Assembly: GCA_910588235.1 (NCBI GenBank)
Contig: CAJUOQ010000008.1
Location: forward strand, 476 to 64,475
Direction of reading: 5' to 3'
DNA from: an uncultured Atopostipes sp.
Lineage (GTDB): Bacteria; Bacillota; Bacilli; Lactobacillales; Carnobacteriaceae_A
Length of the DNA stretch: 64,000 bases
Part shown: piece after piece, positions 2,320 to 64,000 of the stretch
How positions within the stretch are numbered: position 1 is the stretch's first letter
Layout of the letters: the number at the start of each line of letters is the position of its first letter
Position numbers and translations under genes: made by a program
The notes under the pieces: model-generated
Seen by the model: only the letters and a program-made list of their open reading frames with translations
The model's database searches: none
What the model was told of the DNA's origin: nothing

Positions 2320-3207
2320 TTAAAATCGTAAGCTTTTTCCATCAAGAACACGCTCGATGATTTGGGCGACGGCGTCTTCGGTGTGGCTAGGAGCATGGTA
2401 AGCAGCTACTTCTTTTGCTTTGGTGTGGGCATTGGCTACTGCGTAACTATGATCAGCCCATTCCAACATAGTTAAATCATTAATATTATCGCCGATAGTA
2501 ATCACTTCACTTGCTTTATAGCCTTGTGAAGCTGCATACTCAGCCACTGCTTTTCCTTTGTTAGCATGGATGTTGTTGATTTCTAGATTGTTTGTACTTG
2601 CAGAAGTGACAATCAAATCAGGAAGTTCTTTTTCAACATCCGTTTGAATATCACGTAAGATCGAAAGATCATCGGTTGCGTTCGCTAAGGTTTTCAGTAC
2701 TTGAACATTGAAATCTTGGTATAAGAAATCATAATTATCAACTTTTTGAACATTCAAGTTATGGAGTCGTTCACTAACGATTTTTGTAGCTTCTTCATCC
2801 GTTAACGATTTATTAATGGATTGAAAAACAGCTTTAAAAGCTTCGACATAGTCTGCTAATGATTGTTTTGAGTAAGTGGCGTCTTGGGTGATAAATTCAT
2901 GATGAACCCCATAGTGATGGAGAATCTGGATCAATGATTTTGTGTCTTCTTTATCGATTGCACGCGTAAATTGTAACTGTTCGTCGCGGTCAAATAATCT
3001 TGCGCCATTTAATTCAATAAATGGACAAGTCAGGCCATGTTCTTTAACAAGTGTATAACCTGAATCAACGGTTCGTCCAGTCGCTACTGCAAAATCAAGT
3101 CCTGCATCTTGTGCACGAGCGATGGCGTGGGCAGCTCGTGATGTGATTTCGATGTTTTCGTTTAACAAAGTTCCGTCCATATCTGTTACAATTAATTTAA
3201 TTGACAA
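2320..3207 (-). CDS. Cof-type HAD-IIB family hydrolase (sugar-phosphatase-like)
   Basis: 295 aa with a TTG start. HAD motif I is DMDGTLL at the N-terminus, followed by ..ATGRT.. and a C-terminal GDNINDLTML motif. Confidence 0.85.
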   Translation of the reverse strand: MSIKLIVTDMDGTLLNENIEITSRAAHAIARAQDAGLDFAVATGRTVDSGYTLVKEHGLTCPFIELNGARLFDRDEQLQFTRAIDKEDTKSLIQILHHYGVHHEFITQDATYSKQSLADYVEAFKAVFQSINKSLTDEEATKIVSERLHNLNVQKVDNYDFLYQDFNVQVLKTLANATDDLSILRDIQTDVEKELPDLIVTSASTNNLEINNIHANKGKAVAEYAASQGYKASEVITIGDNINDLTMLEWADHSYAVANAHTKAKEVAAYHAPSHTEDAVAQIIERVLDGKSLRF

Positions 3208-60883: not shown

Positions 60884-61441
60884 TTAACGAATTGTTTTCA
60901 TTGCTTTGGCCCATAGGACTGTTTGATCAAGTGTGTTTTCAATAGATTCATTATGGTATTCACCCGGTTTGAATTCAGACATGTTTTCGAAGTCTGTAAA
61001 TATGCTTAGAGCACCAGAAGGCGAAACAACAGCAATACCTACGTTTGTTAACATTTGACGGAGAGCTAGCGTCGCAGAAACACCTAATGTAGAACCATAA
61101 GAGACTGATCCGGCAGCTTTATTTGCCCATTCTGGACCAAGGTGATCGATCGCATTTGCTAGAGAAGGTGAGATATTTCTGTTGTATTCTGGTGTCACAA
61201 AAATATAACCGTCTAGTTCGTCAATCTTTTTCGACCATGCTTGTACGTTTTCATCTTCATATTGTTTATTTAACATAATAGGTGGAACACCGTTAAATTC
61301 TTCAAAATCATAATCTTTAATATCAATTAATTCAAATTCTGCGTCAGATCTATCTTCTGTAAAAGACATGACCCAATCAGCAACTTGCGTGCTGACACGA
61401 CCATCACGAGTACTACCAATAATAACACCAATTTTAACCAT
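60884..61441 (-). CDS. NADPH-dependent FMN reductase family protein
   Basis: The likely start is the Met at 61441 (MVKIGVIIGSTRDGR..) behind ggagga; the track start at 61489 adds 16 unlikely residues. The TPEYN motif is present. Confidence 0.85.
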   Translation of the reverse strand: MVKIGVIIGSTRDGRVSTQVADWVMSFTEDRSDAEFELIDIKDYDFEEFNGVPPIMLNKQYEDENVQAWSKKIDELDGYIFVTPEYNRNISPSLANAIDHLGPEWANKAAGSVSYGSTLGVSATLALRQMLTNVGIAVVSPSGALSIFTDFENMSEFKPGEYHNESIENTLDQTVLWAKAMKTIR

Positions 61442-61546
61442 AAAATGTATTTCCTCCAATAAATAATTTAAGTAGGTGACATAAATCACACTCTCTTCAT
61501 ATTATCTTGAATCCGAGGCGAAGGCAAGAAAAGAAGATTCAAAAAG

Positions 61547-61584
61547 AAAAACTTTACGATCTCTGAGAATCGTAAAGTTTTTTA
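61547..61584 (-). terminator. Intrinsic terminator of the RGG-domain protein gene
   Basis: 12-13-bp stem aaactttacgat / atcgtaaagttt with an 8-nt loop and T-runs on both strands. Confidence 0.8.
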
Positions 61585-61595
61585 GCGACTAAAAA

Positions 61596-62654
61596 TTAAA
61601 AGTCCTCTAAATCTTCTTCTTTTGATGAGTTGTTTGCATCGTCGTTTCCGGTTTTTTTCTCTTCATCTGGTTTATTTAAGGCACTGCGCCACCAGTTGAA
61701 TAGAAGGTAAATAATAACAGCTGCTCCAATAACGATTAATACTGGAATCCAAGGACTTCTTGTAACAGTCATAATGCGATCAGCCGTATCCTTAAATGCT
61801 TCAGAGAAAAAAGCTTCCTCACTAATATCTCGAGTGTAGTGGTAATCTAAGTAATCGTATAAAATATTTTCTACTTCTGTATCCATCAACACTTTTGCTT
61901 GTGAACCAGTCACTAAATGGTAAGAAAATTCATAGTCATAAAAATCATAATTTTCAAAATGAACCAATAAGAGATGGGCTTCATCTGTGAAAAGTTCATC
62001 ATATAAATTATTTGCAAAAGCATCAATTTCATCAGGGGTTGGATTTGGATCACCATCAACATTATCTGTAATGTACACAAAAGGCTGAATATTTGTTTCA
62101 TCGTAGAAATATTTGAGTCCATCTTCTAGTTCAATCGGCTCTCGAATCCATTCGAGTTCATCTTCATAATAAGCCGTTTCATTTACCAAGCCTTCTTCAA
62201 TCGGCTCTCTTTCTCTCGATGATTGGTTGACTTGGACTGTTTCGACTGCCGTATTATTATTTGTTCCTGGCACAAGGGTCCAAGCAAAGTTAAAGATAAA
62301 TAAAATAATAATCATGAAGACAAGACCTGGTAAACAGCCGCCGCAACCCATGCAACCGCCACAACCTCCACGGCCATAACGTCTACGACCAAAGCCTCCA
62401 TAGCCACCGTAGCCGCCAAAGAAGGGTCTAGGCCCCCAAAAGCCACCTGTTCGTCTATAACCGCCGGAGTTGCCACCGGGTCTACTTCCTCTACCGCCTA
62501 TGTTTCTTCCGCCACGTCCGCGAGATCCGCCGCCACCTAAACGACGTCCACCGCCACGGCTTCCACCAAATGAGCGTCCGCCTCCGCGACCGCCACCAAA
62601 ACCGCCGCCACCGAAGCCTCCGCCGCCTCCACGGCCGCCACCGCCTCTAGCCAT
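61596..62654 (-). CDS. Two-pass membrane protein with an N-terminal RGG/Gly-Arg low-complexity domain, a CxxCxxCxxC motif and an acidic middle domain
   Basis: 352 aa with SD agaggag 8 nt upstream. Residues 1-97 are almost entirely G/R/F/S/Y (19 Arg, no Asp/Glu). CGGCMGCGGC spans residues 98-107, followed by TM1, a ~190-aa acidic domain, TM2 and an acidic tail. Confidence 0.75.
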   Translation of the reverse strand: MARGGGGRGGGGGFGGGGFGGGRGGGRSFGGSRGGGRRLGGGGSRGRGGRNIGGRGSRPGGNSGGYRRTGGFWGPRPFFGGYGGYGGFGRRRYGRGGCGGCMGCGGCLPGLVFMIIILFIFNFAWTLVPGTNNNTAVETVQVNQSSREREPIEEGLVNETAYYEDELEWIREPIELEDGLKYFYDETNIQPFVYITDNVDGDPNPTPDEIDAFANNLYDELFTDEAHLLLVHFENYDFYDYEFSYHLVTGSQAKVLMDTEVENILYDYLDYHYTRDISEEAFFSEAFKDTADRIMTVTRSPWIPVLIVIGAAVIIYLLFNWWRSALNKPDEEKKTGNDDANNSSKEEDLEDF

Positions 62655-62805
62655 ATCATCACTCCTCTTATAAAATATGCAATTTTATTTTACCACAAGT
62701 ATTTGTAAAACATAAAAAAATACAACAATTTATTAAAAACCCTACTTTAGGCGGAGTTGTTGTGAAATTTAATTTAATGAAAATATTAAAAATAATGTAA
62801 AGCGC

Positions 62806-62834
62806 TTGCATTTCTAGCGTAATACATATATAGT
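62806..62834 (+). promoter_or_regulatory. Promoter for the PTS EIIBC gene
   Basis: TTGCAT, 17-nt spacer, TATAGT. The -35 overlaps the palindrome tgtaaagcgcttgca (62796-62810). Confidence 0.6.
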
Positions 62835-62852
62835 TAAAAAGAAAAAGAGGAG

Positions 62853-62866
62853 CTTGTATAGACAAG
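62853..62866 (+). promoter_or_regulatory. GntR/HutC-type operator-like palindrome (TreR-like)
   Basis: cttGTaTAgACaag matches the HutC-subfamily core GT-n-TA-n-AC. It lies about 20 nt downstream of the -10 element. Confidence 0.4.
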
Positions 62867-62909
62867 TGTTTGTGAAAGCATACAAGTTCAAAAATAAGGA
62901 GGAAAAAGA

Positions 62910-64000
62910 ATGGCTGATTTTACAGAAGATGCCAAAAAACTCTTGGAAGATATTGGTGGAAAAGAAAATATCAAAGCGGCTACCCATTGTGTCACTCGTA
63001 TGCGTTTTGTTTTAAATGATGAAAGTAAAGCCGATGTGGATGCTATCGAAGATATTCCATCTGTTAAAGGAACCTTCACTCAATCCGGACAATTTCAAGT
63101 AATTATTGGGAACCAAGTGGCGGACTTTTATAATGAATTTTCTAAAGTGTCTGGTATTGAAGGGGTTTCGAAGGATGATGCAAAAGAAGCAGCAAAATCA
63201 AATCAAAACTGGTTCCAAAGAGCCTCTTCCGTTATGGCGGAGATCTTTAGTCCTTTGATTCCAGCAATTGTTGTTGGTGGTTTGATTTTAGGATTTCGTA
63301 ATATTTTAGAAGGGGTCGAATTTGGTGAATGGGGCTTAATTGTGGATAATTCTCAATTTTGGGCTGGAGTCAATGATTTCTTATGGCTCATTGCGGAAGC
63401 TATTTTCCATTTCTTACCTGTGGGAATTACTTGGTCCGTGACTCGTAAGTTGGGAACCACTCAGATTTTAGGAATTGTTTTAGGGATTACATTAGTTTCC
63501 CCTCAATTATTAAATGCTTATGGTGTAGCAGAGACGGCAGCGGCAGATATTCCCCAATGGGACTTTGGTCTCTTTCAAATTGATATGATTGGGTATCAAG
63601 CACAAGTGATTCCGGCAATTTTGGCAGCGCTTGTATTGGCTTATTTAGAGAAGTTTTTCCGAAGAATTATTCCGGAATCCATCTCGATGATTTTTGTGCC
63701 TTTATTCGCTTTATTGCCAACAGTGATTATTGCTCACGTCGTGTTAGGACCGATTGGTTGGCAGTTGGGACAATGGATCTCGCAAGGTGTAATGGCGGGG
63801 TTATCTAGTAGCTTTAACTGGTTGTTTGGTGCTTTGTTTGGAACACTGTATGCACCGCTGGTTATTACAGGTTTACATCACATGACAAACGCGATCGATT
63901 TACAACTTGTAGCCGATTATGGTGGAACCATCTTATGGCCAATGATTGCACTTTCGAATATTGCTCAAGGTTCAGCAGTCCTTGCTATTTGGTGGATGCA
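62910..64000 (+). CDS. PTS glucose-superfamily EIIBC component (trehalose/sucrose-type), 3' end cut by the window
   Basis: Not in the track because there is no stop within the window. ATG follows aaggagg. The EIIB phospho-Cys motif is ..AATHCVTRMRF.., followed by a polytopic EIIC with ..ITGLHHM.. Confidence 0.88.
   Translation, partial: MADFTEDAKKLLEDIGGKENIKAATHCVTRMRFVLNDESKADVDAIEDIPSVKGTFTQSGQFQVIIGNQVADFYNEFSKVSGIEGVSKDDAKEAAKSNQNWFQRASSVMAEIFSPLIPAIVVGGLILGFRNILEGVEFGEWGLIVDNSQFWAGVNDFLWLIAEAIFHFLPVGITWSVTRKLGTTQILGIVLGITLVSPQLLNAYGVAETAAADIPQWDFGLFQIDMIGYQAQVIPAILAALVLAYLEKFFRRIIPESISMIFVPLFALLPTVIIAHVVLGPIGWQLGQWISQGVMAGLSSSFNWLFGALFGTLYAPLVITGLHHMTNAIDLQLVADYGGTILWPMIALSNIAQGSAVLAIWWM

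Follow-up and report, generated by a model that had tools for sequence, protein, structure and literature searches.

What might a bacterial membrane protein do with a head of about 100 residues made almost exclusively of glycine, arginine, and a few aromatic and small residues? The question is raised by a 352-residue open reading frame (ORF) of an uncultured Atopostipes sp. (GenBank assembly GCA_910588235.1, contig CAJUOQ010000008.1), which starts with ATG and occupies positions 61596..62654 on the minus strand, including its stop codon at 61596-61598. The window, i.e., the whole stretch of DNA that was analyzed, spans 64,000 nt, and all gene coordinates follow its numbering. PspA, Vipp1, and ESCRT-III proteins repair and remodel membranes in all domains of life. 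Our comparative analysis suggests that the ancestral and most common role of the family to which this protein belongs is most likely to provide PspA, an ESCRT-III-like protein of membrane repair, with a partner in the membrane, either an anchor or a receptor. We assign a probability of about 0.5 to the combined proposal that the family acts as a PspA membrane receptor or anchor and that its head, on the cytoplasmic side, engages acidic partners and/or anionic lipids as a multivalent interaction module. The coding sequence and the segments of the protein are the following (TM, transmembrane; pLDDT, predicted local distance difference test; dN/dS, ratio of nonsynonymous to synonymous substitutions).

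61596..62654, minus strand: whole coding sequence, supported by the ORF and its composition, a 99% identical protein (P0001), and 415 homologues.
62364..62654, minus strand: residues 1-97, disordered polycationic Gly/Arg/aromatic low-complexity head, predicted to be cytoplasmic (composition; pLDDT <50; dN/dS ~0.1).
62532..62588, minus strand: residues 23-41, RGGGRSFGGSRGGGRRLGG, the best-conserved head motif (alignments).
62334..62363, minus strand: residues 98-107, CGGCMGCGGC, a Cys cluster at the cytoplasmic edge of TM helix 1 (composition).
62274..62336, minus strand: residues 107-127, TM helix 1 (AlphaFold helix, with a pLDDT of 73-94 for this block in two models; hydropathy).
61752..62273, minus strand: residues 128-301, acidic domain, predicted to be extracytoplasmic (Pfam; AlphaFold; Foldseek; invariant columns).
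61677..61751, minus strand: residues 302-326, TM helix 2 (AlphaFold helix; hydropathy).
61599..61676, minus strand: residues 327-352, acidic tail ending in EEDLEDF, predicted to be cytoplasmic (sequence; alignments).

A preliminary description of this DNA had drawn attention to the composition of the head, and our residue count bears it out. Residues 1-97 comprise 51 Gly, 19 Arg, 7 Phe, 5 Ser, 4 Tyr, and 3 Pro residues and no Asp, Glu, or Lys; they contain six RGG triplets, five FG dipeptides, and three YG dipeptides, and the first acidic residue of the whole protein is E138. The head is predicted to be disordered (pLDDT <50 in both AlphaFold models that were built) and carries a net charge of +19, compared with a median of +15.5 in its relatives and a range of +6 to +23 in the family. 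Within this seemingly monotonous segment, the alignments nevertheless delineate positional motifs: M[GA]RGGG..., [FI]GG[SG]R[GS][GS]G.R, and GRRRY. In the motif at residues 23-41, R23, G26, G30, G31, and R33 are invariant and F29 and R38 are present in at least 90% of the sequences, while R3 is invariant as well. The fuller pattern reads R-GGG-x-[SR]-[FI]-GG-[SG]-R-[GS][GS]G-x-R and is accompanied by a GP[IF]F-type aromatic patch and by G-C..G-C at the membrane edge. The Cys cluster at that edge, described earlier as C-x2-C-x2-C-x2-C, is indeed present, but it is not a conserved metal motif: C101 and C107 are kept among the closer relatives, and about 60% of the distant representatives have any juxtamembrane Cys. 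We therefore rejected a four-Cys metal site, the pattern being clade specific.

The head is not a peculiarity of this genome. A first homologue search with residues 98-352 as the query, the low-complexity head being left out, returned 415 homologous proteins. Family members were located in at least 306 species genomes, including those of Carnobacteriaceae, Aerococcaceae, Amphibacillus, and many Clostridia. Clustering at 50% identity gave 1039 clusters with E values of ≤1e-3, 747 of them with E values of ≤1e-10. The protein thus belongs to a large, uncharacterized Bacillota family, for which NCBIfam has no model and of which the Gly-rich cationic head is a hallmark, whereas the preliminary description could name no bacterial family for it. 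The survey of homologues that it had recommended showed that the head is family-wide, almost all members having an extension before TM helix 1, with a family median of about 90-95 residues. The heads in 77 genome loci have a median length of 95 residues, with fractions of.45 Gly,.14 Arg,.13 Ser, and.10 aromatic residues and medians of 0 for both Lys and Asp/Glu. An extension of 50 residues or more is present in 111 of 148 diverse representatives; its median Gly+Ser+Arg content is.66, and its Lys and Asp/Glu medians are again 0. The window clade represents the Arg- and aromatic-rich extreme of this range; many relatives are Ser or His rich and have no RGG triplet.

The apparently head-less "short" members (P0070 and P0083) proved to be gene-calling artifacts, since the head is encoded in frame upstream of the called start. 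In the GGN repeats that encode such heads, gene callers place spurious small ORFs in an alternative frame (VAVEA.../AEAAAA...; positions 2771-3004 of locus L081 and 2741-2950 of locus L083, both from relatives) and so truncate the start of the true gene. The window has equivalent alternative-frame ORFs at 62312-62476 and 62537-62662 on the minus strand and at 62470-62673 on the plus strand, so that its gene may be affected likewise (62312-62662). For annotation, this means that the repeats cause start miscalls, spurious small genes, and false head-less members.

The GC-rich character of the head-coding DNA, pointed out in the preliminary description, is unmistakable, since positions 62331-62654 have a GC content of 0.636, against 0.384 for the whole window and 0.354 for the remaining coding sequence. 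Such a segment could in principle be an assembly artifact, a possibility that had been raised as one that would undo the whole description, or the ORF might not be a genuine gene. Apart from the unusual composition, nothing speaks for either view, and the comparative data refute them: hundreds of genomes and metagenomes, independent of one another, encode the same architecture in frame, the protein P0001 is a 99% identical copy, and the promoter and ribosome binding site are conserved. Moreover, when the window gene was compared with eight relatives, the dN/dS ratio of the Gly/Arg region was ~0.07-0.2 (dN, 0.11-0.23; dS, 1.0-2.7). The reading frame is therefore a genuine coding sequence, and the gene is conserved. 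The folded domain gave a similar dN (0.12-0.27), its dS being mostly saturated. The suggestion that the DNA repeats are prone to slippage fares less well. Tandem Repeats Finder detected degenerate copies with 63-73% matches and one two-copy 9-mer at 90%; a perfect slippage-prone repeat was rejected, the Gly/Arg-coding DNA containing only degenerate copies, and any proneness to slippage would be modest. In our reading, the head would be an interaction module that selection maintains at the inner membrane face, and not a passive linker.

With what might the head interact? ORF clustering over 80 species loci showed that in 63 of them a gene of ~225 codons lies directly downstream on the same strand, separated by 1-160 bp. 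Its product is PspA/IM30 (PF04012, PspA_IM30; E value, 1e-39) and has a median net charge of -9. It shares 54-57% identity with the PspA encoded by a metagenomic pspA-ydjGHI operon of the B. subtilis type. The family gene and pspA form a tight two-gene operon, and the family protein would be analogous to B. subtilis YdjH, with a permuted architecture. In our proposal, the Arg and aromatic residues of the head would bind acidic partners (PspA) and/or anionic phospholipid head groups, and the repeated [FI]GG[SG]RGGG.R units would provide the multivalency for clustering. Variants of the gene pair were also seen: two tandem pspA paralogues follow the family gene in a Bacilli metagenome-assembled genome (locus L074) and in Amphibacillus sp. 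Q70 (L080), and in two Sedimentibacter-like loci (L081, 4758-6846; L082, 1861-3949) the pair is followed by a gene for an MprF-like lysyl-phosphatidylglycerol synthase, an enzyme that remodels membrane charge.

The earlier impression that the middle domain of the protein is loosely TPM-like turned out to be well founded. Residues 175-296 match Pfam PF04536 (TLP18.3/Psb32/MOLO-1) over profile positions 15-124 of 125 with 20.7 bits, against a gathering cutoff of 22.1 bits (E value, 4.4e-4), and 72 of 90 relatives match the same profile at an E value of ≤0.01, the best at 6.3e-7. In a full-length AlphaFold model built on a 90-sequence alignment, residues ~150-300 have a pLDDT of >90 and adopt the order β-α-β-α-β-β-α-α with a four-stranded sheet. 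When this model was submitted to Foldseek, as the preliminary description had advised, the best matches in the Protein Data Bank (PDB) were all TPM structures: BA41 (5anp; probability, 1.0; TMt, 0.64), AscF (6hwh_O), and Psb32 (8c7i), with cg2496 (2kpt) and Rhom172_1776 (7tbr) also among the best neighbors. Searches of PDB sequences with the protein and with the family profile retrieved nothing except a Gly-rich linker. The modeled fold thus identifies the middle domain as a divergent TPM domain, spanning residues ~160-296 and preceded by a conserved juxtamembrane segment (S145 and R149).

TPM domains have already been linked to PspA. For B. subtilis YdjH, a TPM protein, two-hybrid assays showed binding to both PspA and YdjI, and PspA foci do not form without it (PMC8581546). 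Like YdjH, whose gene belongs to the pspA-ydjGHI operon (PMC8581546, PMC11237479), the present family has a TPM domain that is predicted to lie outside the membrane, and it is co-operonic with the same PspA subfamily (54-57% identity). YdjH also has a cytoplasmic Gly/Ser/Arg/aromatic low-complexity stretch ending in ..GGTSYSGSRGSF, and its cytoplasmic end GGVTKGGTSYSGSRGSF resembles the repeat unit of the present head. The architectures differ, YdjH being composed of a signal peptide, a canonical TPM domain (82.6 bits with PF04536), one TM helix, and a C-terminal tail, whereas in the present family a low-complexity head and a TM helix precede a divergent TPM domain (~20 bits), followed by a second TM helix and a tail. 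The gene orders differ too: ydjH lies downstream of pspA, whereas the present genes lie upstream of it, without ydjG or ydjI partners. YdjH works with YdjG (Zn ribbon) and YdjI (SPFH), and, in contrast to ydjH, the window gene has no adjoining pspA. The family profile scored 2 bits against YdjH, which is no significant sequence similarity. Hence, among the features that characterize YdjH, the pspA operon is found in the family (63/80) and not in the window, and neither architecture nor orthology is shared. Because of the pspA adjacency, the common PspA subfamily, the YdjH precedent, and these differences from YdjH, the family would give this PspA subfamily a second partner of the TPM type, permuted in architecture, in a minimal two-gene module. 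By analogy, the present protein would work most like YdjH, i.e., as a TPM-domain PspA anchor.

In the metagenomic pspA-ydjGHI operon (L089, 901-3692), all three PspA partners have a Gly-rich low-complexity stretch containing aromatic residues: YdjG ends in ..MMGGGF, YdjH ends in ..GGTSYSGSRGSF, and YdjI contains ..SGGGAASDMAGMMMG. Proteins associated with PspA may have such segments recurrently. The role that we propose is also that of PspB/PspC in E. coli and LiaI in B. subtilis, small integral membrane proteins that recruit PspA and are encoded together with a PspA homologue (PMC8581546, PMC9239133), although they have no sequence or fold relationship to the present family, no TPM domain, and no low-complexity head.

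The ectodomain itself suggests a different possibility. In the 90 homologues, S145, R149, Q190, D224, H227, D258, and E260 are invariant, as is the block LFTDEAHLL, and such a set of polar side chains points to a conserved pocket that may bind a ligand or a metal. TPM proteins such as TLP18.3, Rv2345, and BA41 have been reported to be acid phosphatases or ATPases (PMC13456599), and many TPM proteins, E. coli YgcG among them, bear a Gly-rich tail in the cytoplasm. The family could therefore comprise extracytoplasmic TPM-type enzymes or binding proteins (phosphatase- or nucleotidase-like), with the head serving as a topogenic or spacer element, at once a very strong positive-inside signal and a flexible bristle without a specific partner. 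We consider this unlikely, while still taking it seriously. A topogenic signal requires a few Arg residues, not ~95 conserved residues, and the positional motifs, the aromatic spacing, the exclusion of Lys, and a dN that matches the low value of the folded domain point to a specific function of the head. Moreover, tight operon coupling with the cytoplasmic PspA demands a cytoplasmic interface. The enzymatic activity of TPM domains is itself disputed, AscF binding neither metals nor nucleotides (PMC13456599).

E. coli YgcG (UPF0603) shares with the present protein a TPM domain, a membrane anchor, and a Gly-rich cytoplasmic low-complexity segment. However, the order of domains in YgcG (signal peptide, TPM domain, TM helix or helices, and C-terminal tail) is permuted in the present protein, and the YgcG tail is C-terminal, ~35 residues long, and Gly/Ser rich, and contains Asp and three Arg residues, whereas the head described here is situated at the N terminus, has about three times that length (~100 residues), is strongly cationic, and carries conserved motifs. 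The family profile matched YgcG marginally (5 bits over 50 residues), and hhalign was uninformative. In E. coli K-12 (L084, NC_000913.3, 2905557-2906583), ygcG lies 14 bp downstream of yqcG, annotated as encoding a "cell envelope stress response protein," a further case of a TPM gene paired with an envelope-stress gene. AscF and AscG of the mycobacterial CIII-CIV supercomplex, Psb32/TLP18.3, and MOLO-1 are also TPM proteins, acting as nonenzymatic adaptors or assembly factors (PMC13456599), and AscF is among the best structural matches to the present domain. These proteins serve other complexes, none of them has a Gly/Arg head, and AscF is cytoplasmic.

The relatives have a median of four Lys+Arg residues in the 20 residues before TM helix 1 and of zero in the 20 residues after it, in support of the positive-inside argument made in the preliminary description. 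The two TM helices, the acidic middle domain, and the acidic tail that it had recognized were likewise recovered: residues 128-301 (174 residues) contain 23 Glu and 18 Asp and have a net charge of -32, and the tail has a net charge of -6. Acidity is a family trait of the ectodomain (median net charge, -24), and 82 of 90 relatives have no Cys in it. Because the flanks of TM helix 1 obey the positive-inside rule and the ectodomain is acidic and Cys free, we predict a two-pass topology with both termini inside and the TPM domain outside.

One feature of the structural model is at odds with this topology. In the full-length AlphaFold model, residues 34-40 (nt 62535-62555, minus strand, within GSRGGGRRLGG) form a β-strand with a pLDDT of ~83, which is docked onto the remaining protein, whereas the same residues have a pLDDT of ~42 and form no strand when residues 1-135 alone are modeled. 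If genuine, the DSSP-assigned strand of the full-length model, gone in the shorter one, would mean that the motif at residues 31-41 pairs with the TPM sheet, as AscG completes AscF, and that the topology differs from the one predicted above. There are precedents, since a foreign strand or the protein's own tail can complete a TPM sheet (AscG and BA42; PMC13456599). Nonetheless, we judge such pairing very unlikely. A canonical TM helix of 21 residues lies between the head (+19, no acidic residues) and the ectodomain, the charges strongly favor an N-in orientation, and all four canonical TPM strands are already present in the model. In addition, the motif columns are nearly invariant and so offer little covariation to AlphaFold, and the two models were built on alignments of unequal depth (90 sequences for the full-length protein and 30 for residues 1-135). 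The strand is thus a probable modeling artifact.

The predicted cytoplasmic, disordered head brings us back to the eukaryote-like RGG domain of the preliminary description. The composition does fit: the head is 53% Gly and 20% Arg, with interspersed Phe/Tyr/Trp, six RGG triplets, and no acidic residue; it uses Arg and not Lys strictly, despite an AT-rich genome, both the Arg-not-Lys and the no-acid rules hold family-wide, and a predicted disordered segment is kept under purifying selection. Like the RGG/GAR (glycine/arginine-rich) domains of fibrillarin, nucleolin, FUS, and LAF-1, the head combines disorder, Gly/Arg/aromatic composition, a preference for Arg over Lys, and an RGG/FG/YG grammar. 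It might accordingly be a functional analogue of these domains, a membrane-tethered RNA/DNA-binding or condensate-forming module. However, the claim of likeness stands for the composition and not beyond it, as no homology to any RGG protein was found in PDB sequence searches, and the RGG triplet is not conserved, its number varying from 0 to 8 per protein with none in many Ser-rich relatives. The present head is membrane tethered, unlike the eukaryotic domains, and has no RNA-related genomic context, its conserved neighbor being PspA and not a gene of RNA metabolism. Anionic lipids are bound just as readily by polycationic juxtamembrane segments, and our literature search found no report of membrane-tethered bacterial RGG domains. 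A nucleic acid-binding or condensate-forming analogue is therefore improbable in our view. We know of no bacterial Arg-methylation system.

There is a more elaborate version, which we regard as speculative and rather unlikely: the head would be a membrane-tethered bacterial counterpart of RGG domains, a multivalent sticker layer on the inner side of the membrane that condenses with acidic partners and thereby nucleates or organizes membrane-repair assemblies. Its partners may include PspA/ESCRT-III protomers, the acidic ..DF end of the protein itself, cardiolipin, or RNA or polyphosphate. If such a layer exists, the two-gene arrangement of pspA and a TPM protein with a low-complexity head would be the minimal Psp system of many Firmicutes.

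How far the proposed PspA-anchoring role extends to the window gene itself is a separate matter. The window contains no pspA in its 64 kb, and the gene is monocistronic there. Its closest relatives, from Atopostipes and uncultured Carnobacteriaceae (loci L001-L008; 59-78% identity), share the window neighbors (FMN [flavin mononucleotide] reductase, glyoxalase-like, GNAT, ferric-reductase-like, and divergent phosphotransferase system [PTS] genes), and they too have no adjacent pspA. A tail motif, P[LI]DxFG..AEDLAKKY, occurs in 47 of 61 pspA-linked members, whereas the proteins of the Atopostipes-like clade and of Marinilactibacillus are without it and have an acidic ..D[DE]FDF end (EEDLEDF in the window protein). 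The absence of an adjacent pspA thus coincides with the loss of this motif, and in the window clade the PspA-related tail may have given way to the acidic, aromatic ..DF end. We rejected the idea that the motif mimics the C-terminal segment EPIDEAKALEEKY of PspA; the tail profile, when compared with all neighboring ORFs, had no significant match to PspA (best E values, 0.67-0.9). Furthermore, Atopostipes and Marinilactibacillus are not among the best 120 homologues of the associated PspA (≥71% identity), among which the neighboring genera are all named. This pattern suggests that pspA was lost in the Atopostipes-like lineage, where it is no longer adjacent and probably absent. The protein, including its head, is still under purifying selection. 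The head being kept and constrained in the window clade, its function cannot depend solely on an adjacent pspA. The protein of this clade presumably also has a PspA-independent role, as a TPM-type scaffold or sensor at the envelope.

These considerations limit our confidence in the PspA-anchoring proposal. With a monocistronic window gene and no pspA nearby, a role in PspA anchoring may not apply to the very protein that we started from, and the head, which persists where pspA is gone, need not have PspA as its partner. PspA binding is deduced from gene order and from a nonorthologous TPM protein, the correlation between tail and pspA rests on perhaps two independent lineages, and the absence of PspA in Atopostipes was read from the list of the best 120 homologues and not from a genome scan. 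In addition, the window protein scores just under the Pfam TPM cutoff (20.7 versus 22.1 bits), and the docking of the strand at residues 34-40 in the AlphaFold model contradicts the predicted topology.

To our knowledge, PspA recruitment in most Gram-positive bacteria is known only for B. subtilis (LiaI and YdjGHI). Our analysis defines a very widespread, poorly annotated, and often miscalled module consisting of one membrane protein and PspA. The part of the membrane protein that is predicted to face the cytoplasm consists almost wholly of the conserved, disordered, Gly-rich, and Arg-specific head. The link between TPM proteins and PspA and the presence of Gly-rich segments on TPM proteins are already known; what is new is the N-terminal, Arg-specific, motif-bearing head of ~100 residues and the two-gene module that the low-complexity TPM protein forms with pspA. 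Literature searches on TPM proteins with glycine-rich segments and on bacterial membrane RGG domains found nothing relevant to the head or to the two-gene module. Should the head be a docking or nucleation element for PspA, the pair would offer a simple, tractable system for ESCRT-III recruitment and a rare bacterial example of a selected RGG-like low-complexity domain at the membrane.

The window gene has its own expression signals, in agreement with the good Shine-Dalgarno sequence, the terminator, and the monocistronic layout that had been described.

62660..62667, minus strand: ribosome binding site GAGGAGTG, 5 nt 5' of the ATG, kept as AAGGAGTG in relatives.
62682..62709, minus strand: sigma-70-type promoter, TTTACA, 16-nt spacer, TAAAAT, with a TG-extended -10 element (TGgTAAAAT) conserved in the clade.
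61547..61582, minus strand: strong intrinsic terminator with a 15-bp stem and a T run.

Comparison of positions 61000-64000 with Rfam revealed no RNA element. The intergenic region of 255 bp (62655-62909) contains a cre-like (CcpA-type) near-palindrome, TGCAAGCGCTTTACA, at 62796-62810 (minus strand), which most of the aligned Atopostipes-clade loci conserve at a distance of ~150 nt on the upstream side of the gene. It probably serves the divergent PTS EIIBC-like gene, which starts near 62910 on the plus strand and runs off the end of the window.

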